Virus record (IMG/VR): IMGVR_UViG_3300026521_000466
Location: 100,798-164,797 of that record
DNA: 64,000 nt
From: a virus
Direction: 5' to 3' (one strand)
Part shown: positions 3,151-63,918 of the stretch, piece after piece
Layout of the letters: the number at the start of each line of letters is the position of its first letter
How positions within the stretch are numbered: the first letter of the stretch is position 1
The notes under the pieces: generated by a model
Database searches by the model: none
Told to the model about the DNA's origin: nothing
Seen by the model: the letters and a program-made list of their open reading frames with translations, nothing else
Made by a program: the position numbers and the translations under genes

Positions 3151-3190
3151 ACACCTAAAGCCCAATCCACTATAATAATATACAGATAAA
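3151..3190 (-). promoter_or_regulatory. Early-type phage promoter (TATATTAT) followed by TTAGGTG leader motif
   Basis: Minus strand reads GTATATTATTATAGTGG...CTTTAGGTGT; matches the repeated consensus in this window and resembles the phiKZ early TATATTAC element. Confidence 0.75.
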
Positions 3191-4187: not shown

Positions 4188-4228
4188 AATTATCTCCTTA
4201 CGATAATAAATAATTAGTATCATAGATA

Positions 4229-4263
4229 CACCTAAGCCTAAACCACTATAATAATATACAAAC
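4229..4263 (-). promoter_or_regulatory. Early-type promoter plus GGCTTAGGTGT leader motif
   Basis: Minus strand reads TTTGTATATTATTATAGTGGTTTAGGCTTAGGTGT. Confidence 0.8.
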
Positions 4264-4334: not shown

Positions 4335-6086
4335 ATGAGTGATATATGTAAAGAGTTTAGGTTTGCTGTACACCTGCCTAATAGTGACGATGGCGATTAT
4401 CATTTAGTGAAATTCCTAAATCACTATCCTGATGGTAGACAAGAGCACTCTATAGAGTTAATAAAAGATTATAAAAGACCATTTTATGTAACTAAAAAGT
4501 TCTATAGAAATCATAAACAGAGGAAAGAAGCCGAGCATTTGAGTAGATTAGATAAGTTCATGTCTACAGAATCAGGATTAGCAAATAGCATATTTAAAGC
4601 ATTGGGGAAACCAAAATATAAGAAAGCAAAACTATACGAGGTAAGAAGAGATAGAGATAGTATCTATGTTTATGGTGCAGACATACCATCCACTACACTG
4701 CTCTCTATGGAGTATAAAAAGAAGTGTGATAAGATAACACCGTTTATCCCCGGTTTTCTCGATATTGAAAATGATGTAGATACAAAAGAGATATCCCTGA
4801 ATACATTCGTCTATACAGAAGATGGAATCGATAAGGTTTATACTTTTGTAAATAATAACCTTATTCCAAACCTGCCTGGATTGGAAGAGAGGATAATTAA
4901 TAAGTTATTAAAATCCTTACCTGATAAACTCCCATATGGACTAGATGTTGATAACTTAAAAATATCAATAACCAAGTGTAAAGATGAGAAAGAGTTAATA
5001 CAAAAATCATTTAGCAGAATACATCGCTCTGATATCGATATATTATCCGGATGGAACTTTGAATTTGATATCTCTACTATTGCAAAAAGATCTGTGGTAA
5101 ATGGATTAAGACCCGAAGATGTATTTTGTCATCCTGATATACCAAAAGAGCTCAGGTTCTTCGAGGTGATAGTAGGTAGGAGCGAGAAAGTGACTCAGGC
5201 AGGCAAGGTAACACCAGTACCGCCTGAAGAGAGGTGGCACGTAATGAAGAGTGCTGCTAAGTTCATAATGATGGATAGTATGTCACTCTATCGATATATT
5301 CGTTCACAAGATAAAAAGATACAAGGCGGGTATGGTTTAGATAACGTATTGGCAAAGTCTTTGAAGATAGGTAAACTTAAAACAGTTGATATTGAAGGTG
5401 TAACAAAATATGAGTGGCATAAAACCATGTCTAATAAACACCCTATTGATTACTCTGCATATAACATATGGGATTCACTAGGATTAAATTGTAAAAATAA
5501 AAAAGACCACGACCTAGATTACTCACTACCCCTATTGAGCGGACATACTACATTTTATAACTTTAACAGTAACCCCACTAAGATATATGAGGATATGTAT
5601 GAGTTCTATATGAAAGAGGATAAAGTACTGGCTATGTTTAAGAGTAAGGATGAGCAGGAGAGCAAATCTTTAGGCAGGGAATATTGGACAGTCACACTTA
5701 ACCTATGGAGAATAGATGAGAATTATAGCGTACCTATACTGGATGATGAGTATTATTTAAATACTACAGAGTTACAGGATAAGGCTGCGCAAATGGTAGC
5801 ATCACATTACAATACGCCAAGGCCATTAACTAAGACAAGAGCTTATATACTGGCCATGGACTTGGATGTTACCTCTGCTTATCCAACAGTTACTTATGTT
5901 TTGAATATCAGTAACGATACATGTGTAAGAGACCTATTTGATGTAGTGGGAGTAGAAAAAGAAACATTTAAACATGCCAATATTGATTTAATCACCGGTG
6001 TAATATCACATTTAGATTATGGTCATATTATGCATGAGTTACCTACATTGATAGAGGTGGATAGTATGATAGATGATTATTTATAA
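4335..6086 (+). CDS. Split B-family DNA polymerase, exonuclease plus motif A subunit (phiKZ gp82-like)
   Basis: ExoI LDIEND, ExoII GWNFEFDI, ExoIII YNIWDS, C-terminal PolB motif A DLDVTSAYP. Confidence 0.85.
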   Translation: MSDICKEFRFAVHLPNSDDGDYHLVKFLNHYPDGRQEHSIELIKDYKRPFYVTKKFYRNHKQRKEAEHLSRLDKFMSTESGLANSIFKALGKPKYKKAKLYEVRRDRDSIYVYGADIPSTTLLSMEYKKKCDKITPFIPGFLDIENDVDTKEISLNTFVYTEDGIDKVYTFVNNNLIPNLPGLEERIINKLLKSLPDKLPYGLDVDNLKISITKCKDEKELIQKSFSRIHRSDIDILSGWNFEFDISTIAKRSVVNGLRPEDVFCHPDIPKELRFFEVIVGRSEKVTQAGKVTPVPPEERWHVMKSAAKFIMMDSMSLYRYIRSQDKKIQGGYGLDNVLAKSLKIGKLKTVDIEGVTKYEWHKTMSNKHPIDYSAYNIWDSLGLNCKNKKDHDLDYSLPLLSGHTTFYNFNSNPTKIYEDMYEFYMKEDKVLAMFKSKDEQESKSLGREYWTVTLNLWRIDENYSVPILDDEYYLNTTELQDKAAQMVASHYNTPRPLTKTRAYILAMDLDVTSAYPTVTYVLNISNDTCVRDLFDVVGVEKETFKHANIDLITGVISHLDYGHIMHELPTLIEVDSMIDDYL

Positions 6087-14281: not shown

Positions 14282-14371
14282 TATATTTATATGACTATAA
14301 ATGTTATGTAGTCAAAAATACCTATGATATGGTATTTGCAAATATCAAATTAACACAATAAAGGACATTTT

Positions 14372-22906: not shown

Positions 22907-22990
22907 GCTACCTAAGTAGCGCCTCATTCCAGCCGGCCGTGATGAGGTGTTATCCTACATCACTGTAATAATATACGTTTAAAAAAAAAC
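22907..22990 (-). promoter_or_regulatory. Early promoter and structured 5' UTR of the chimallin-like gene
   Basis: GTATATTATTACAGTG at 22961-22976; leader hairpins CACCTCAT/ATGAGGCG and GCTAC-TTAG-GTAGC. Confidence 0.7.
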
Positions 22991-23089
22991 GACTTGCAAT
23001 ATTTGTTATCCACTAACCGAAGTTAGCAGAGACATCTATTGTCATATAATAGGTTAAATAAAAAAATAGTAAGAGTGGACCTGCCACCC

Positions 23090-31061: not shown

Positions 31062-31391
31062 TTACTTTTTAATTTCTTCTGGAGTTCTTACCAGATGCGC
31101 GCTTCCATCTACCGTAGGGATATCTTCAATAGGCAAGTCTCTATCTACTAATACATCAAGATGTCGTTGTTCGTATAAGGAAAGCGCTTTCCTGATATGA
31201 AAAATTATCTCCTTATTATACGGATGATGTTTCTCTGCTTCCAGAACCTTTGTTCTATCTATTGCAACACGCAATAGCTCTTGGGTAATTGTCCCGTCTA
31301 TGCCCGCTTTATTATCGATAAACTTAATTATCTGTCCGCCTCTATGTTTGTTATCCACTCGATATACAAACCCCGCTTTTATAACATCCAT
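31062..31391 (-). CDS. Tad1/Acb2-like cyclic-nucleotide sponge candidate
   Basis: IKF...GT.TQELLRVAIDR..L......N...I.H...AL....QR resembles the Tad1 helical hairpin (G..NEDL....IDRL..FQ...CREN..AIT.LEEAL.WL..RT). Confidence 0.55.
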   Translation of the reverse strand: MDVIKAGFVYRVDNKHRGGQIIKFIDNKAGIDGTITQELLRVAIDRTKVLEAEKHHPYNKEIIFHIRKALSLYEQRHLDVLVDRDLPIEDIPTVDGSAHLVRTPEEIKK

Positions 31392-31401
31392 CCCATATCC
31401 C

Positions 31402-31881
31402 TCATTTTATTCTATAGATAACAGTATCATCATTTTTAATCATCTCTATAGTCTCTGCTGTAGCTATTAATATACCATGTCTGTCTCTCATATTAAGCCT
31501 GTCGTCAAGAACACCCATATCTTTATCGTACCCTAACCTAATCAAATCTCCTTTCATACGATCTGCGAAAGGCACTTCAACTAACGTTCTTCCATAGAAC
31601 TCTTTTTTAAATATGTTCAATGTCAGTATAGACGCAAGAGAAAAACCAAATGGGAACCCAATTAGCAATGCGATGTCCATAGCTAAGTTGAACCAATTTG
31701 TTTTAAAGTCGTCTTTTATCATATCAATGATATCTATAATGCCTTCTTTGAAACGCTTAATAGTAAACATGTCAGAAACATTCAAAACCATAATTATAAC
31801 AAACGCCATAACTATACCACTAACAACCAATGTTATAACAAAACTTAACAGTGAGTATAGTGTAAATATATCCATTCCCAT
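31402..31881 (-). CDS. Membrane protein
   Basis: Two hydrophobic helices. Confidence 0.7.
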   Translation of the reverse strand: MGMDIFTLYSLLSFVITLVVSGIVMAFVIIMVLNVSDMFTIKRFKEGIIDIIDMIKDDFKTNWFNLAMDIALLIGFPFGFSLASILTLNIFKKEFYGRTLVEVPFADRMKGDLIRLGYDKDMGVLDDRLNMRDRHGILIATAETIEMIKNDDTVIYRIK

Positions 31882-31885
31882 CTTA

Positions 31886-32386
31886 TCACTCCTTCTCTAC
31901 ATACATTAGAGTCATTAGGTACTCATATGCTTCATCTCTATGGATTTTAGGAAGATTTCCACATGACTTACTCTCTCGATCAGCTATATCCTCTTCACCC
32001 ATACCTCTCTCATTATATACTTTTTCAGGATCGTACTTTGCCACCAGTTCAATAGCAATCACCTCCACATCAGTGCCGTCAAATATCTCTTTAACTGCTT
32101 TGATATCTTTTGACGATAAAAAAGAGACAACAGAGTCTTTATCTGTATCTCTAAGATGATATCCATAATGATTCCCATCACCAGTCTCCATATGATGGAA
32201 AAATTTCCCTTCCATATAAAACTTATTAAACATCCCTTTACTTACATGTATGTAGTAATAAGGATCATCTTGACGACCTGTTCGTGTAGTATATATGGTC
32301 ACTGGCTGTATTCCAGCATCCACCAATTTTCTCTCTAAGGTAGTTTTACCCACTCCACTCTTACCGCATAAAACAATAAGTTTCAT
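31886..32386 (-). CDS. Guanylate kinase-like P-loop protein (paralog 1)
   Basis: GKSGVGKTT, YTTR..R, Y..VS...F, GNHYG. Confidence 0.8.
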   Translation of the reverse strand: MKLIVLCGKSGVGKTTLERKLVDAGIQPVTIYTTRTGRQDDPYYYIHVSKGMFNKFYMEGKFFHHMETGDGNHYGYHLRDTDKDSVVSFLSSKDIKAVKEIFDGTDVEVIAIELVAKYDPEKVYNERGMGEEDIADRESKSCGNLPKIHRDEAYEYLMTLMYVEKE

Positions 32387-32513
32387 TACTCTTCTCCTTT
32401 TTACTCTTTTACATCATATACTATAGAGCACACTTTCACTTTTCTGAAAGGTTTCAATAGATTAACTAAAATAAATTTTAGCATAGGTGTTTTATAACAA
32501 TAGATTGCTGGTT

Positions 32514-32798
32514 TCACCGCTCACCTCCTTGATATTGATTACTGATTTCTGCCATATGATCGATGAGTTTATAAATAAAATTCTTCACTCTCGGTCCTTT
32601 ACAGAATACTGTTACTTTCGTATTATGTTGTTGACTAACTTCAACCATTGGATACATGTTATAGAAGTTTTCTTCATTGATGTATGTTCCCAATTTAGAA
32701 TTTATCCTCGCAATATATGAAGGTTTCTCTTCATCCGCGAGTGAAGATTTTTCAATCTCATAGATAAAACCTTTTCGTTTGCCTTTAATTATCCACAT
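32514..32798 (-). CDS. Hypothetical early protein
   Basis: AAGGA RBS downstream of the promoter. Confidence 0.65.
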   Translation of the reverse strand: MWIIKGKRKGFIYEIEKSSLADEEKPSYIARINSKLGTYINEENFYNMYPMVEVSQQHNTKVTVFCKGPRVKNFIYKLIDHMAEISNQYQGGER

Positions 32799-32825
32799 AG
32801 TGGTTCCTTCACTGTATAAATTTTA

Positions 32826-32879
32826 ATAGCTATTAAAGCACCTAAACCTAACCACTATAATAATATACAAAAGAAAAAA
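32826..32879 (-). promoter_or_regulatory. Early-type promoter plus leader motif
   Basis: Minus strand reads TTTTTTCTTTTGTATATTATTATAGTGGTTAGGTTTAGGTGCTTTAATAGCTAT. Confidence 0.8.
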
Positions 32880-32906
32880 CGTACCCTAGACCGTAGTCTA
32901 GGATAG

Positions 32907-33449
32907 TTAGTATCGCTCATATACATTATAGATAAGTTGTGCTTTATCCATACTTCCATAGTCACGTATCTTTTCACATGCAGTTGACGCATCCACAGCA
33001 AGCTCTTTCAAAAGTCTGGTTGAGCTGTAAGTCACAGCTTCTCCTGCCTTATAATGCGGTCTCAATACTTTATCCATAATCTGCGCAGACCTTAATAGAT
33101 TCCAACAAGATGCTTTAACTTCGCCATACAACCAAGATCTTTTACCATCATACATTTTAAGATATTGATCCCAATAAAGAACTCGCCTAGCCTTTGCTTT
33201 AAATGATCTTGATCTAGGAGTGTCTCTATAACCACACTCTATCATTACATTCTTTGCCGCATCCAAATCATTAGGGATAAATCTGGGATACCCAACCTTA
33301 TATGCAGCACCGTAAAACTTGTTCAGTTTTAACAGTGCATCCAATTCGTAAATAGCTGCTGCGCAACTATCAATATTAGCACTTAATGCACTAGCGAATA
33401 TTGCCATAATAAGAATAATCTTTTTCACTTCTTCTCCTTTATTCTTCAT
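32907..33449 (-). CDS. Secreted/periplasmic hypothetical protein
   Basis: Signal peptide (V)KKIILIMAIFASALSA after AAGGAG; two cysteine pairs; CTTAGGTGT leader motif at 33467-33475. Confidence 0.7.
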   Translation of the reverse strand: MKNKGEEVKKIILIMAIFASALSANIDSCAAAIYELDALLKLNKFYGAAYKVGYPRFIPNDLDAAKNVMIECGYRDTPRSRSFKAKARRVLYWDQYLKMYDGKRSWLYGEVKASCWNLLRSAQIMDKVLRPHYKAGEAVTYSSTRLLKELAVDASTACEKIRDYGSMDKAQLIYNVYERY

Positions 33450-33529
33450 AATTAATGTCTATTGACACACCTAAGTATACTCTACATAATAATCATATAT
33501 AAAAGAAAAAACTTGCTAGGGTCAATACC

Positions 33530-41162: not shown

Positions 41163-42622
41163 AGCCTCTTTGGAGAAAACTTATACTCTATATCATAATT
41201 GCAATATGCGTCGCCGATAACTGAAAGATGTCTATCGTCCAGTTTAAATGGAGATGTCACTGTAACATAACTATCTAGTGCAGGTATCTCATAAGTATGG
41301 ATCGGCGAACTTAACAACTCGAACCCCTCTAGGTTAAACGTCAATGCAGATACTGTTAGTATACTCTCCTCTTTATTAACAAAGGAAACTATCAGTAATC
41401 TGTCATCGCCTGTGTTGGAAAGCACTGTATCACGCTCTACCAACAGATAGTTGTCAGGAGCAGGCCTCTCATCTCGTATGTCCTCTACGTGATATTCACC
41501 AAGAGCATCCTGATAAAGACAATACTCATTAACAGATTTAATTATAACTCTACCATCTTCAAATTTGAAACCGTAGTCAGAATCAGCAACAACTCCCATA
41601 GAGTAATCTGTAGATTCATCTTCCAAGAACCCGGCCTTTACATCATTAACGCGAGAATAGTGTTTTACCCATTTCATGTTATTATTTATAGCTTCAGGAT
41701 AGAGAATATCAATTCCTGTACCGACACACACCTTATTCGTAAGGTACTTGATATAGTGCTCCAAATTGTTTTCGTTAAGCCCCACTCTATCATTAGTAAG
41801 TAGTATTTTTTTACCCCACTCTGTCTCTAGCTTACATGCATGATCCAGTATCTCTCTGGAATGTTCAATAATACGATTGTTCTTCAGATATGGCCTCTCT
41901 TTAAATGTTGACCTGATCATCTGTCTAAATAGGGCAGTGTGGTTGTTCTCGTCCCTATTGATGTACTTAATCATGTTGGTTGTGCCTGGCATCAACTTAT
42001 TCACAGAAAGAGAATAGAATCCTAGGAATGCACTATTAAAGTAGATAGCTTCCAATGCTTGATTTGCAAACATGGCATAGACAAACGTCTCTTCTGTAAC
42101 GTGCTCCGCTAATGATTCGTAAGTATCAACAATGATGTCATTCTTATGTTTAAGTTCTTGATCTGTAGAGCTCAAAAGATAGATATCATCAGCCGCATCC
42201 CCACATACAGAATCAATAATCCACCCATACGAAAATGCGTGTAATGATTCATCAAAAGCTTGCCTCGTCAACGCATGTGAAATCATAGGGTCTGTAACAT
42301 ATTCAATAATGTTAATAGAAAGATTCTTGGATTGAAAACTATCCATAGAAAATATCTGCGCTAATGATCTATTATAAGAATCTCTGGTCTCATCACTTAG
42401 CTCTTTGTACTGTTTAGCATCTTCTACAAGCGATACTCTTTTAGGAGTCCATTCGCACTCTAACATGCGCTCGAAAGTAGCTTTAGACCACCCATACTTA
42501 ATATCTTTAAAGTTTACGTCACTTGGAGGGTTGCCCCCAAATATCTTTCTCTCCTCAATAGGTTCACTGTCCTCTGATGTTGGATTGTATATGTTCGCCT
42601 TATTTAATACTTTGTATTCCAT
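41159..42622 (-). CDS. nrdB: Ribonucleotide reductase class Ia beta subunit with ~140 aa C-terminal extension
   Basis: W.P..V.L.ED, D84-equivalent MDSFQ, ESLHAFSY (radical Tyr), LEAIYFNSAF, INRDENNH, FLE...TDYS. Confidence 0.92.
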   Translation of the reverse strand: MEYKVLNKANIYNPTSEDSEPIEERKIFGGNPPSDVNFKDIKYGWSKATFERMLECEWTPKRVSLVEDAKQYKELSDETRDSYNRSLAQIFSMDSFQSKNLSINIIEYVTDPMISHALTRQAFDESLHAFSYGWIIDSVCGDAADDIYLLSSTDQELKHKNDIIVDTYESLAEHVTEETFVYAMFANQALEAIYFNSAFLGFYSLSVNKLMPGTTNMIKYINRDENNHTALFRQMIRSTFKERPYLKNNRIIEHSREILDHACKLETEWGKKILLTNDRVGLNENNLEHYIKYLTNKVCVGTGIDILYPEAINNNMKWVKHYSRVNDVKAGFLEDESTDYSMGVVADSDYGFKFEDGRVIIKSVNEYCLYQDALGEYHVEDIRDERPAPDNYLLVERDTVLSNTGDDRLLIVSFVNKEESILTVSALTFNLEGFELLSSPIHTYEIPALDSYVTVTSPFKLDDRHLSVIGDAYCNYDIEYKFSPKRL

Positions 42623-42664
42623 GTTGTTCCTTTATTTATTTTAGTCAGATAAGAAATTTTAAAA

Positions 42665-42803
42665 AATAAAAAAATGACACCATCCTGGACGGGGATATCC
42701 AGGAGGCATGCATTGATAGATAAATCTCGTGAGCATACCATATTTTGGCTTAGGTGTCTTGTAGCTATGTAAAAGGAGGAAAATAACTACTGGTATGCTC
42801 ATA
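42665..42803 (-). ncRNA. Candidate ~130 nt small RNA antisense to the early-leader motif and Shine-Dalgarno
   Basis: TATATATTATT promoter at 42806-42816; 11-bp stem 42730-42740/42791-42801 enclosing UUCCUCCUUUUACAUAGCUACAAGACACCUAAGCC; TCCTGGA/TCCAGGA hairpin and U tract at about 42661-42705. Confidence 0.7.
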
Positions 42804-42828
42804 TCAATAATATATAATTAAAAATTTA

Positions 42829-45800
42829 TCATTGGCAACCTGAACAGGTAACAAAGTCATCCTGTGTCAATTCATCTATCTCTTCCGGGGATTTGCCTCT
42901 TGCATAGTAAATGCTTGATACACCTAAGTGTCTTGCATAATGATAGAGAATTCCCAAATCTCTTGTTGAGTTACTAATACCTGTATCTGGGAATAGGTTT
43001 CCGGATGGTGCTTGGTCAATCCATTGCTGCACCACAGCTAGGTTTTGAATAACTTTCATCTGATCTATCTCATATGCTGATTTATAGAACTTGATAGTGT
43101 TGATATTCAGGTCAGGTACCACTGATCTAAATTCACCAACGCTGGTCTTATCAGTATATACTCTTTTAAAGATAGGTTCTATGGACGGAGTAGTATTCGT
43201 GATAACAGCAATATTTGTAGTTGGAGCCACTGCCATAACATAAAGGTTTCTCATGCCTTTACTGGTTTTCTCTCTCAGTTGGTCCCAATCCATACTCCAT
43301 GGTCTATCCACTATCTTCTTGATATTCTCATTGGCAAAATCTACAGGCAATACTCCTTTTTCCCATTCACTGCCTTTGAATCCTGGGGCGACTCCTTTTT
43401 CAACAGCTAGATCGGCTGATGCCTGATATGCATAATAAGATACCCACTCCATAATCTGGTCAATACGTTGAAGTGCCTCTTTTGAACCAAACTCAAGTCC
43501 CTCTTTGGCAAGTAGATGATGCTCGCCCATAACACCAAGACCGATAGCTCTTGTCTTCATTGCATGTCTGAATGCACCGCCAACAGGATAGTAATTTATA
43601 TCGATGATATTATCGAGTGCTCTGATCATAATAGGTACAACTCTCTTAATATCCTCTTCAGTGTTTATCTTGGATATATTTAAAGAAGCAAGAGTACAGA
43701 CGAATATTTCATCATCTTCTATTTTATTCTCTGTGTACCCAATATTCACTCCTTTATAGAAATCATTTGGGGCCAGTTTGCTATATGGCCTTCCACTCTC
43801 TGATATATCACTGCCAAGCTCTTTACCTAAAAGTTTACCTTCCCTGTCATAAACGTATGTATAGAGCTCTCCTGCTTTCGCATACTGGCTTATTTCACAA
43901 CAGAGATTAGAACTATAGATAGTTCCGAGGTGTTTATTCATATGCCTCCTGTTCATCTCATCTTTATCAACGCAGTAAGGCTCACCGGATGTCAATGCTA
44001 TAGACATAATGCTGGTATAGAGATCAGCTGCTTTCACCACCTCTTTACTAATGGAACTTGAACGTTCATAATGTTCATACCTCTCTTTGAATTCATCTCC
44101 ATAGAGATCCAACAGATCGGTAACATCATGCGGATCAAACAGCGTCCATGTTTCATTGTTTCTAACTCTCTCCATGAAGAGTTTGTTCTCCCACATAGCA
44201 ATATTCATATCGTATGCTCTACGTCTTACATCACCTGTAGGTTTATGTAGCTCCAAGAACTCTTTAAAATCTTTGTTCCATGGCTCAAGATAGACTGCTA
44301 TTGCACCCTTTCTTGTATTGTGGGTTAGAAGATATCTATCTTTTCCTTCGTCTACACCAACATGCACGAAATAGTTATTATTATGTTCGATTGTATAGTC
44401 CACAAACACCTCATCACTATCACCACCTACTGTAAATATAACTTTCTCTTCACCAAGATTGGATATTGTAACTTCACCTTCTACCACCTCGTCAGCTCGC
44501 TTATATACAATATTACTATTCTCAACAATCGGAGTAGGATGCCATGCACTGGTAGTATAAGAACCAAGTGTCGTTGTGATTTCAGTTTGTGCTAGGGAAG
44601 GTACTCTTACGGTATGTTTAGAGACTAACTTCCTTACCTCTTTTTTACCAGTCTCATTGTTTAAAGACAACGCTAACATACCAGGTTCAATTTCAGAATG
44701 GTATAGAGGAATATATGTAATTGCACTTTCAATATCATCCATTGCATTTACAATATTGATAAGTTCTTCAATAGTTGGTTTATCTGCATTGTTGATATCT
44801 ATTTTCTCTGTTACTATAGTGAGATTTTTTAGATTGACATTATGGGTATTATTGTCTTTATGATAAACAAGTCCCTTTTCATATCCGAGATAAGTCAATG
44901 CCATAACTGTAGCAATGTAATACTTTTTCTCATCAATGCTTGCAGTCAATACTTTACCGCCTTTTGATAGTTTAGCAGGTACTGTTGCAAGAGTATATCT
45001 ATTTATCATAAGTCCAAACTCATTGATCATATAGTCTTCTAGTCCTTTAACTTTTATATCCGTAAACCCTTTTGGAAGATATCTACCATTAATTGCATTT
45101 GCTAACTCAGGAACATCCGCATCTATGGATCTGCCACATAGATATTTTTCTATCTTAAGCATCTTTTCATTATAATTTTCATCATTTTCATCAAGGATTT
45201 CACTTACTATATCAGATACGTAGTTATCTCTAGCATCGCTATATTTGACATAATATTTTTCTTCCCGCACATTGTATGTCACGCCATCAACTGTGATAGT
45301 ATCAATAATAGCAATACGACTATTACTAGAGACACACCCCAACTGGTCAAACTCTAACTGAATAGCATTCGTTGTAACTGCCAATGGAACAACACCGCCT
45401 GATGCTCCCGGTATACCATCAACTACAGAACCGTCAGTCCTGACAAAACCATCTGACCAACCGATGCCACCACCGAATTTACTAAGTATAGCCATTACAG
45501 TTCTTGAGTGCATGATTCCCTCTGCACTATCATGTGTTACACCGCCATAACAGCTATTCAGCTGACATCTGATACTTCTGGCATTTGCCAGCGTCGGAGT
45601 ACTGTGCATAAAGTTAAACTGAGATACTTCACTATAGTGTTGTTCTGCATAGTGTTCTTTAAGTCCGTCTGGTTCATTCTGCATTAAAACCATTGCTACC
45701 GACATAAAGACGAACTGTGGTAACTCAAAAGGCTCTTCGTTCACAGATTTAATATATCTCTGTCTAAATGTATAAGCACCTACATAACTGAACTGATCAT

Positions 45801-46203
45801 CTCTGTCATGTTTAATAGCTTTTGCCAATCTATCAAGGTCATAGCTCAAAAGAACTTTATCAAAGATGCCGTGTTCAACCCCATACTCTATATACTTTCT
45901 AAACGAAAGACCACCCAATGTTTTAGTAACTTGATGTCTAAGATCATAAAGAAACAATCTCCCTGCTAATACTGCATTGTCAACTGCATCAATATCAATA
46001 TCCAAAACAATGATCATAATCAGTGTTTGATGTATCTGCTCCGTAGTCATACCATCTTTGATATTCTCCATGAACTTTTTCATTATTGATGTCTTATCGA
46101 CATTTAGTTCATTAGAAGCATACTCTAAGAAACCATAGATTTTGTCTATGTTAAATGGTTCTACTCTACCATCCCTCTTTATTACATTGATTTTCTCTTT
46201 CAA
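42829..46203 (-). CDS. nrdA: Ribonucleotide reductase class Ia alpha subunit with intein
   Basis: ATP cone VIKRDG, STPTLANA, LNSCY, SKFGGGIG, RKGAIAVYLEPW, SSNLCCEI, CTLASLN, APT, YY.R, C-terminal CSGC; TTG start. Confidence 0.95.
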   Translation of the reverse strand: MKEKINVIKRDGRVEPFNIDKIYGFLEYASNELNVDKTSIMKKFMENIKDGMTTEQIHQTLIMIIVLDIDIDAVDNAVLAGRLFLYDLRHQVTKTLGGLSFRKYIEYGVEHGIFDKVLLSYDLDRLAKAIKHDRDDQFSYVGAYTFRQRYIKSVNEEPFELPQFVFMSVAMVLMQNEPDGLKEHYAEQHYSEVSQFNFMHSTPTLANARSIRCQLNSCYGGVTHDSAEGIMHSRTVMAILSKFGGGIGWSDGFVRTDGSVVDGIPGASGGVVPLAVTTNAIQLEFDQLGCVSSNSRIAIIDTITVDGVTYNVREEKYYVKYSDARDNYVSDIVSEILDENDENYNEKMLKIEKYLCGRSIDADVPELANAINGRYLPKGFTDIKVKGLEDYMINEFGLMINRYTLATVPAKLSKGGKVLTASIDEKKYYIATVMALTYLGYEKGLVYHKDNNTHNVNLKNLTIVTEKIDINNADKPTIEELINIVNAMDDIESAITYIPLYHSEIEPGMLALSLNNETGKKEVRKLVSKHTVRVPSLAQTEITTTLGSYTTSAWHPTPIVENSNIVYKRADEVVEGEVTISNLGEEKVIFTVGGDSDEVFVDYTIEHNNNYFVHVGVDEGKDRYLLTHNTRKGAIAVYLEPWNKDFKEFLELHKPTGDVRRRAYDMNIAMWENKLFMERVRNNETWTLFDPHDVTDLLDLYGDEFKERYEHYERSSSISKEVVKAADLYTSIMSIALTSGEPYCVDKDEMNRRHMNKHLGTIYSSNLCCEISQYAKAGELYTYVYDREGKLLGKELGSDISESGRPYSKLAPNDFYKGVNIGYTENKIEDDEIFVCTLASLNISKINTEEDIKRVVPIMIRALDNIIDINYYPVGGAFRHAMKTRAIGLGVMGEHHLLAKEGLEFGSKEALQRIDQIMEWVSYYAYQASADLAVEKGVAPGFKGSEWEKGVLPVDFANENIKKIVDRPWSMDWDQLREKTSKGMRNLYVMAVAPTTNIAVITNTTPSIEPIFKRVYTDKTSVGEFRSVVPDLNINTIKFYKSAYEIDQMKVIQNLAVVQQWIDQAPSGNLFPDTGISNSTRDLGILYHYARHLGVSSIYYARGKSPEEIDELTQDDFVTCSGCQ
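44317..45336 (-). mobile_element. Intein (340 aa) in NrdA with NUMOD4/HNH-like insert
   Basis: DQLG|CVSSNS...TTSAWHP...FVDYTIEHNNNYFV...LLTHN|TRKGA; removing it restores DQLGTRKGA; insert contains YHKDNNTHNVNLKNL. Confidence 0.9.
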
Positions 46204-46364
46204 GATTTGTCCTTTTTTAAAATTATTTTGTAGACAACTTTGTGTCAGATAAATCCATTACAATATTTTTTAATAAAAGTTAAGAAAATAGTATCTAAAA
46301 TAATACCTATTGACATAAACTATTTTTAAATTTATTGATTAAATCAAAACATTAAAGGATACAC

Positions 46365-50784: not shown

Positions 50785-50837
50785 TAGCTTTACAGCACCT
50801 AAGCGTATCCATTATAATAATATATAAAAGAAAAAAA
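50785..50837 (-). promoter_or_regulatory. Early-type promoter plus leader motif
   Basis: Minus strand reads TTTTTTTCTTTTATATATTATTATAATGGATACGCTTAGGTGCTGTAAAGCTA. Confidence 0.8.
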
Positions 50838-53963: not shown

Positions 53964-54006
53964 ACACCTAAGTAGTGTCTATTATAATAATATACAAAAG
54001 AAAAAA
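53964..54006 (-). promoter_or_regulatory. Early-type promoter plus leader motif
   Basis: Minus strand reads TTTTTTCTTTTGTATATTATTATAATAGACACTACTTAGGTGT. Confidence 0.8.
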
Positions 54007-61865: not shown

Positions 61866-61888
61866 TCACTCCTTCTTTTTTATTAGTA

Positions 61889-61923
61889 CACCTAACCAGT
61901 GTCTACAGTAATAATATACAAAT
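61889..61923 (-). promoter_or_regulatory. Early-type promoter plus leader motif
   Basis: Minus strand reads TTTGTATATTATTACTGTAGACACTGGTTAGGTGT. Confidence 0.75.
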
Positions 61924-63083: not shown

Positions 63084-63126
63084 GACACTAAGCTTAAACC
63101 ACTATAATAATATACAAAAGAAAAAA
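63084..63126 (-). promoter_or_regulatory. Early-type promoter plus variant leader motif (GCTTAG-TGTC)
   Basis: Minus strand reads TTTTTTCTTTTGTATATTATTATAGTGGTTTAAGCTTAGTGTC. Confidence 0.75.
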
Positions 63127-63877: not shown

Positions 63878-63918
63878 GACACTAGCCTAATCCATGTTAA
63901 TAATATACAAAAGAAAAA
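63878..63918 (-). promoter_or_regulatory. Early-type promoter plus variant leader motif (GGCTAG-TGTC)
   Basis: Minus strand reads TTTTTTCTTTTGTATATTATTAACATGGATTAGGCTAGTGTC. Confidence 0.7.

Follow-up and report, generated by a model that had tools for sequence, protein, structure and literature searches.

What does the gap between the ribonucleotide reductase genes nrdA and nrdB of this phage carry? It occupies positions 42623-42828 of the window (the whole 64-kb stretch of DNA analysed here), and both of its flanking genes lie on the minus strand. An earlier note, made from the letters of this DNA, had placed in the gap a candidate small RNA complementary to the leaders and Shine-Dalgarno (SD) sequences of many early genes. 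The features on which that proposal turns are collected in Table 1.

The source phage and the setting of the gap

The window is the final part of a linear IMG/VR record of 164,797 bp (G+C 35%), whose completeness is ~61% by CheckV. Two RNA-polymerase (RNAP) beta-like ORFs are found on the record. The best isolated-phage matches of the 693-aa RNAP beta-like ORF are to Bacillus phage AgentSmith and phiKZ at ~25% identity, while its two closest metagenomic relatives are 34-36% identical and both have a PhiKZ-type major capsid gene adjoining RNAP beta. From these polymerase matches and the PhiKZ-type capsid gene beside the polymerase of its relatives, the source is a jumbo phage of the phiKZ/AR9-like type, very divergent and equipped with two multisubunit RNA polymerases. 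The SD sequences of the phage are Firmicutes-style.

There are no close relatives of this phage in the collections searched. Megablast and tblastn against phage records returned no nrdB above 33% identity, IMG/VR searched with nrdB peptides gave no relatives, and a search of 5.8 billion proteins retrieved the phage's own nrdB followed by bacterial nrdB at 42% identity. Promoter and promoter-plus-leader DNA patterns run against IMG/VR and metagenome contigs gave isolated chance matches only, and none of 115 metagenome loci aligned with the genome by blastn. For comparison we used a more distant relative, IMGVR_UViG_3300037333_000013 (hereafter G001; 34% identity), of which 62% is available.

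Both reductase genes are enlarged: the barrel domain of nrdA is interrupted by an insertion of ~400 aa that has no Pfam match at E < 0.001, and nrdB continues past its small-chain domain in a C-terminal extension of ~170 aa, likewise without a match. Between the two genes we found no credible ORF on either strand, and none with a usable ribosome site; tiny ORFs (47, 45 and 32 aa; MLISIIYN) were considered and rejected, as all of them lack an SD at a workable distance. The nrdA stop codon lies 15 nt upstream of the minus-strand promoter core described below. The sequence holds no terminator between that stop codon and the gap hairpin, and the gap sequence therefore doubles as the 3' UTR of the nrdA mRNA.

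Closer to nrdB, downstream of the gap terminator, lies the sequence TTATCTGAC, 29 nt upstream of the nrdB start. A second copy (46244-46252, minus strand) lies 48 nt upstream of the nrdA start, and these two are the only exact intergenic copies that point toward a gene. The sequence may be a TATG-like promoter for the non-virion RNA polymerase, or an nrd-specific operator. If it is the promoter of nrdB, then nrdB is independent of the gap promoter and the promoter-to-terminator unit in the gap stands alone. Variants of it (TTATATGAC / TTATCTGAA) also occur ahead of a few other genes, at 23049, 14287 (+) and contig position ~89827 (+).

Table 1. Positions, in window coordinates, of the gap features, the flanking genes and the predicted target leaders.
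Feature	Position	Strand	Basis or remark
nrdA, ribonucleotide reductase (RNR) large subunit, 1124 aa, large insertion	42829-46203	-	Pfam ATP-cone, Ribonuc_red_lgN, Ribonuc_red_lgC
nrdB, RNR small subunit, 487 aa	41159-42622	-	Pfam Ribonuc_red_sm
Early-type (virion RNAP) promoter core TATATTAT	42807-42814	-	exact AR9 rule, TATATTAT-N6-G+1
N6 spacer TGATAT	42801-42806	-	sequence
Predicted transcription start G, first base of outer stem	42800	-	from the N6 spacing
Outer stem 5' arm, RNA nt 1-10, GAGCAUACCA	42791-42800	-	repeat and fold
Inner stem 5' arm, nt 11-18, GUAGUUAU	42783-42790	-	MFE and centroid folds
Apical loop UUUCCUCCUUUUAC, nt 19-32, 14 nt, anti-SD block	42769-42782	-	unpaired probability ~0.9
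Inner stem 3' arm, nt 33-40, AUAGCUAC	42761-42768	-	fold
Internal loop AAGACACCUAAGCCAAAAUA, nt 41-60, 20 nt, anti-leader block	42741-42760	-	unpaired probability 0.4-0.9
Outer stem 3' arm, nt 61-70, UGGUAUGCUC	42731-42740	-	repeat and fold
Intrinsic terminator, extended hairpin nt 87-128, then U7-A-U6	42661-42714	-	fold, sequence
TTATCTGAC, candidate nrdB promoter, downstream of terminator	42644-42652	-	predicted function
Predicted target leader, +1 3168	3152-3168	-	
Predicted target leader, +1 4244, GGUUUAGGCUUAGGUGU	4228-4244	-	15/16 positions complementary to internal loop from nt +2
Predicted target leader, +1 32853	32839-32853	-	best accessibility-corrected energy, -15.7 kcal/mol
Predicted target leader, +1 33485	33467-33485	-	
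Predicted target leader, +1 50810, GCUUAGGUG plus AAGGAGG	50796-50810	-	
Predicted target leader, +1 53980	53964-53980	-	
Predicted target leader, +1 61904	61888-61904	-	
Predicted target, variant leader GCUUAGUGUC	63084-63100	-	
Predicted target, second variant leader	63878-63893		

A predicted transcription unit within the gap

The early promoter motif of this phage, ttttttcttttG-TATATTAT-TAtagt-G(G), occurs in ~30 copies, nearly all of them intergenic and on the minus strand; 33 of the 68 exact TATATTAT cores fall in intergenic DNA, which makes up 9.5% of the contig. In phage AR9 the early promoter was mapped experimentally as AAATATATATTAT-N6-G(+1), and its reader is the virion RNA polymerase (PMC5312081). 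The motif found here fits that rule, with TATATTAT as the core and the +1, usually G, after N6.

The minus-strand early-type promoter that the earlier note had described in the gap is indeed there: 42806-42816 reads AATAATATATA on the plus strand, i.e. TATATATTATT on the minus strand, with a canonical core, T at -1 and G at +1. Its score on the matrix of the extended consensus (T-run, G, TATATTATTA) is 11.4 bits, compared with 15-42 bits for clear promoters, and as shuffled genomes yield ~8 matches above 8 bits, it stands near noise level. The gap promoter is without the upstream T-run and G and has TTG in place of TTA; the T-run is also absent from several plausible promoters (4244, 18887, 61904). 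The AR9 virion polymerase is reported to be intolerant of some single deviations (PMC5312081). Among the other intergenic TATATTATT-N5-purine sites listed, each is promoter-like with a leader behind it, and a variant identical to that of the gap promoter, TATATTATTGATATG, lies ahead of a gene in G001. A sigma-70-like sequence (TTGCCA-18-TATATT) overlaps the gap promoter core, and such matches are common in this DNA (9 vs. 5.1 expected).

A 135-nt RNA from 42800 has a predicted folding energy of -40.2 kcal/mol (z = -5.86), and 0 of 200 shuffles were as stable. The MFE and centroid folds concur on a two-tier hairpin, with a 10-bp outer and an 8-bp inner stem, followed by the terminator, and both loops are unpaired in the ensemble. 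The structural elements that the earlier note had reported were recovered: its 11-nt inverted repeat (42730-42740 / 42791-42801) is 100% complementary with arms 50 nt apart, the loop sequence that it quoted occurs in the minus-strand RNA, and its terminator corresponds to a hairpin at 42673-42714 followed by U7-A-U6. This hairpin is G+C-rich and stands directly before the U tract, as in an intrinsic terminator, which would end the small RNA and the nrdA mRNA alike. Rfam, the C4 family (RF01695) included, gave no family at gathering score in the window, and a search of 42560-42900 at E up to 10 returned noise only.

Each of the two loops displays a block complementary to part of an early leader. 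The internal loop AAGACACCUAAGCCAAAAUA complements GGCUUAGGUGU(C) plus upstream U's, the anti-leader seed in the predicted RNA being ACACCUAAGCC, and the apical loop pairs with the AAAGGAGG-type SDs of many genes. The apical anti-SD loop is generic in that it pairs with any strong SD, so that specificity rests on the anti-leader block. The order of the blocks, anti-SD 5' and anti-leader 3', suits an antiparallel two-site clamp on a leader.

Early leaders and their complementarity to the predicted RNA

Eight early transcripts, their +1 set by the AR9 spacing rule, open with GGnUUaGGCUUAGGUGU or a close form, and two further leaders are variants (GCUUAGUGUC / GGCUAGUGUC). The leader block spans +2 to +18 and lies at a nearly fixed distance from +1. 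The window holds 13 copies of the heptamer TTAGGTG from this block, 11 of these on the minus strand; the bare count is not significant (13 vs. 8.1 +/- 3.1), and in gene-upstream regions the heptamer is enriched 9-fold. Seven copies have a TATATTATTATA-type promoter 10-13 nt upstream as well as an SD and start codon downstream. The blocks that early leaders had been said to share were confirmed in the sequence at all coordinates, and so was the flipped orientation of the gap copy, in which TTAGGTG (42750-42756) lies on the plus strand, opposite to local transcription. The phrase 'many early genes' in the earlier note, on the other hand, has to be narrowed: it stands for eight exact and two variant leaders, among ~28-30 predicted early promoters in the 61% of the genome that is available.

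The genes behind the motif leaders are small ORFs, and the eight tested had no Pfam match. A 530-aa ORF that also lies behind a motif leader (contig 31359-32951, minus strand; window -69438 to -67846) has, judged by eye, a GroEL-like N-terminus (..MGPGGANV..TKDGVTVA..); a chaperonin of the GroEL-like kind is known in the phiKZ-like phage EL. In several leaders (3168, 4244, 32853, 33485, 50810, 53980, 61904 and contig position 33006) the motif forms the 5' half of a two-tier hairpin, consisting of UUAG, a GUG bulge, a variable stem-loop and YUAA, with inner stems that vary by leader (GUAUC/GAUAC, GUUAU/AUAAC, UGUC/GACA, GCU/AGC); the pattern resembles a conserved RNA structure and is perhaps a protein-binding site. 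Across early transcripts, 14 of 29 start a hairpin within 3 nt of +1, a modest enrichment over the 30% of shifted controls. A different leader of 84-88 nt, structured and G+C-richer, is common to the early transcripts with +1 at 22961 (minus strand) and contig position 14284; it has a GAUGU...CAUC 5' hairpin followed by GGCGC..CUUAGG.., and the pair looks like a paralogous cis-regulatory RNA.

Pairing energies were obtained by scoring the two loops block-wise, with the opening energies of both partners included. This scoring replaced the RNAcofold ddG, in which long SD duplexes, or loop-enclosed pairs beyond the reach of co-folding, prevailed. On the motif leaders the anti-leader block reached -7 to -16 kcal/mol, giving ranks 1, 2, 4, 5, 6, 7, 9 and 19 of 179 start regions, a test that is partly circular, in that the motif is defined by the complementary word, and that adds the accessibility of the sites on both partners. 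Seven early leaders reached -8 kcal/mol or better with the real anti-leader block; 60 shuffles of the block averaged 0.65 such leaders and never exceeded 4. After accessibility correction the anti-leader block singles out the motif-bearing early leaders; plain co-folding puts strong-SD genes without the motif first. With regard to the anti-leader block, then, the predicted RNA has an accessible seed whose complementarity to its predicted target mRNAs is beyond chance. The anatomy of the locus, its fold, accessibility and complementarity, and the specificity against shuffles were all computed here.

The kinship of the gap to the leader family can also be seen on the plus strand. When the 50 nt between the repeat arms were aligned with the leader family (sum of the three best Smith-Waterman scores), only one of 3000 random genomic 50-mers matched or beat them, and the gap locus is the contig's strongest antisense-oriented leader copy. 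A leader profile HMM was underpowered, scoring family members at 5.6-15 bits and the gap copy at 4.9 bits. The plus strand cannot act as an ordinary leader, having neither a plus-strand early promoter nor a start codon 5-10 nt past the SD. As to a late-promoter motif that might serve a plus-strand transcript, k-mer enrichment gave only SD and leader words; ATTGATA was rejected as such a motif, being merely a frequent coding word. An invertible segment (11-bp repeats with 50 bp between) was likewise rejected as too short for known invertases; moreover, a flip yields no better gene, the SD-to-ATG distance being 15 nt in both orientations. We also noted a sense copy of the motif, AGACACUUAGGUGUAUC, within the nrdA coding region (42913-42930, minus strand), ~110 nt upstream of the small-RNA start, which could form 9 bp with the anti-leader loop inside one nrdA transcript.

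In the relative G001 the TATATTAT core was found at 27 sites, all but one of which lie on one strand. At least eight of its early transcripts share a +1 leader block of their own, GTAATTGAATTGCTGTGC with variants; the conserved block from +1, written GUAAUUGAAUUGCUGUGC, lies at ~12 early promoters (e.g. 12484, 19522, 75188, 94689, 159640) and differs from that of the phage studied here. Blocks of this kind, each specific to its phage, may therefore be a general trait of 5' leaders in the clade. No antisense copy of the G001 leader block was found on the transcribed strand in the available 62%, and the G001 nrdA-nrdB gap is empty at 35 nt, its nrd genes being 23-25% identical to those of our phage. 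This result argues against a clade-wide system and says little on this phage. In G001, moreover, at least four copies of an ~80-nt element (GUAAUUGAAUUAC..AUAGUCAGGCA..hairpin..CAUAGxCCUGUAxCxGGUAAUGC; no Rfam match) lie directly after early promoters in loci L263-L271 (+1 at 5341, 44123, 60353 and 117109), and the element occurs also at position 158 of locus L122, so that two phages, with RNAP beta 34% and 36% identical to that of the phage studied here, share it in conserved form.

A possible repressor of early messages and its alternatives

The observation of the earlier note is confirmed, and its interpretation is supported in part. Our best but tentative reading, somewhat less likely than not, is that the locus specifies a trans-acting repressor of motif-bearing early messages. 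The gap would encode a self-contained ~130-nt non-coding RNA on the minus strand, transcribed by the virion RNA polymerase from the early-type promoter and ended by the intrinsic terminator, and every nrdA transcript would carry the same sequence once more as its 3' UTR, nrdA being a message that is probably read later than the early programme. The RNA would begin at the base of the two-tier hairpin (10 + 8 bp) and expose two single-stranded blocks, of which the apical loop would target the SD and the internal loop the +2 to +18 block common to 8-10 early mRNAs. Since the order of the blocks matches that of their targets when the partner runs antiparallel, a single RNA could clamp each message at both its 5' end and its ribosome-binding site; the clamp would block initiation and/or give rise to double-stranded RNA as a substrate for decay, so that expression of this early subset would be limited or ended. 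The use of the promoter, the site of +1, the discrete RNA and the whole of the regulation are here predicted from the sequence. The locus has the anatomy to be expected of a small-RNA gene, the AR9 spacing puts +1 exactly at the stem foot and the complementary blocks both lie in predicted loops, which speaks for a repressor; against it, the RNA would share its early-type promoter class, and hence its timing, with its targets. The fuller scheme, in which a small RNA from its own early-type promoter and from the nrdA 3' UTR clamps the 5' end and SD of 8-10 early mRNAs, shuts them off and so times the early programme, we regard as rather doubtful.

The structure could instead be an inert relic, left when an early leader was duplicated in inverted orientation, or copied by template switching, into the gap, in which case the hairpin and terminator would merely finish and stabilise the nrdA mRNA and the complementarity to other leaders would reflect common ancestry without function. 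Such an origin, which we consider somewhat unlikely, would fit the alignment of the gap plus strand as a member of the leader family, the low score of the gap promoter and the lack of an equivalent in G001, and the ~30 promoter-leader-terminator cassettes in the genome are an obvious substrate for recombination. At the least, the structure is nrdA 3' UTR, since no terminator precedes the hairpin. However, a decaying copy should erode evenly, yet GGCTTAGGTGT (11/11) and AAAGGAGG are intact where the spacer has diverged; the two blocks both remain unpaired, in the loops of a highly stable fold, and the exact promoter core stands at the sole spacing that gives a +1 at the stem foot. An improbable alternative is that the unit, which shares the strand of nrdB and sits immediately ahead of it, is a cis-acting leader: the early-type promoter would drive nrdB, the 179-nt 5' UTR would attenuate read-through, and the anti-SD loop, able to pair at 10 of 13 positions in the start region of nrdB, may hide the ribosome site of that gene. 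There is some precedent, as eight of the 11 short sRNAs of 201phi2-1 are 5'-UTR premature-termination products (PMC11512511), and GACACC in the internal loop can pair with GGUGUC of the terminator 3' arm as a possible antiterminator. These alternative pairings, however, are short (6 bp) and absent from the MFE and centroid folds, so that exclusive terminator and antiterminator folds of comparable stability, as in an attenuator or riboswitch, were not found in the gap. The terminator stem, moreover, is long and followed by U7, the TTATCTGAC sequence downstream of it, as at nrdA, suggests a separate promoter for nrdB, and a cis-acting leader offers no reason for a loop that matches the 5' block of unrelated early leaders.

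It is also conceivable, if very unlikely, that a protein or the polymerase recognises the leader motif, which would then be an operator, a downstream promoter element or a site for an RNA-binding protein, and that the gap copy is one more binding site on DNA or yields a plus-strand decoy RNA. The near-constant distance of the motif from +1 and the phage-specific block conserved from +1 in G001 too would suit such a role, as would the two-tier leader hairpin, which with its variable inner stem resembles protein-binding RNA hairpins. But the gap copy is inverted and ~45 nt from the promoter, and its plus strand lacks the two-tier hairpin of the leaders. Nor is there a plus-strand early promoter to make a decoy; a sigma-70-like TTGATA-17-TACCAT does lie just upstream on the plus strand, but matches of this type are, as counted above, frequent here, and phages of the phiKZ/AR9 type do not depend on host RNAP (PMC5312081).

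Returning to a trans-acting repressor, its closest analogues by mechanism would be the loop-displayed antisense RNAs c4 and sar and, by architecture, the short RNAs of 201phi2-1 and phiKZ. The c4 antisense RNA of phages P1/P7 is 77 nt long (PMC12197685). It is likewise a phage small RNA with complementary sequences in its loops that targets the ribosome-binding site on a same-strand phage mRNA and blocks translation, but c4 is processed from the operon of its single target, ant, and serves lysogenic immunity, whereas the gap RNA would have its own promoter, 8-10 dispersed early targets and a second block at the extreme 5' end, in a virulent-type jumbo phage; the two share no sequence or Rfam similarity. 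The sar RNA of phage P22 is 68/69 nt long and is listed as trans in a review table (PMC12197685). Like the predicted gap RNA, it is a short, terminator-ended phage RNA, and it represses translation by pairing with the region of a ribosome-binding site. Sar is encoded opposite its single target, whereas the gap RNA is antisense to nothing at its own locus. In Firmicutes, 3'-UTR anti-SD elements and C-rich-loop sRNAs (the icaR 3' UTR of S. aureus, RsaE/RoxS) likewise use pyrimidine-rich unpaired loops to pair with the SD, and the gap element too lies in an mRNA 3' UTR, that of nrdA. Those elements are bacterial and carry UCCC-type motifs, whereas the gap loop nearly reproduces the anti-SD end of 16S rRNA and is joined to a phage-specific second seed. 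The RegB endoribonuclease of T4, an early phage protein, acts at the SD of some of the phage's own early mRNAs and inactivates them; the analogy is one of function only, RegB being a protein nuclease and the predicted gap product an RNA.

Short sRNAs are also known within this broad phage group: 201phi2-1 has 11, of unknown function (PMC11512511), and the reports on these phages describe no validated phiKZ sRNA (PMC8244752, PMC11512511). The short RNAs of these phages resemble the gap unit in having a promoter and then a terminator within 250 nt or less, in intergenic or 5' UTR positions; they were seen experimentally and have no known targets, whereas the gap RNA is predicted and comes with an explicit target set. 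At ~25% identity in RNAP beta, phiKZ is too distant from our phage for a comparison of RNA homology. The remark in the earlier note that no such system had been described in jumbo phages agrees with the reports on phiKZ and 201phi2-1, which describe no post-transcriptional control of early messages (PMC8244752, PMC11512511).

If the repressor reading is false, the locus is simply the 3' end of nrdA, made out of a reused leader cassette. As it stands, the predicted RNA offers a short, explicit list of predicted targets together with two defined seeds. If the reading is true, phiKZ/AR9-like phages would gain their first self-regulatory sRNA that acts in trans on several targets; an antisense RNA directed by a phage at several of its own messages would join the means by which phages time their genes, and the phage-specific 5' blocks of early leaders, which G001 has too, would be suggested as regulatory handles.
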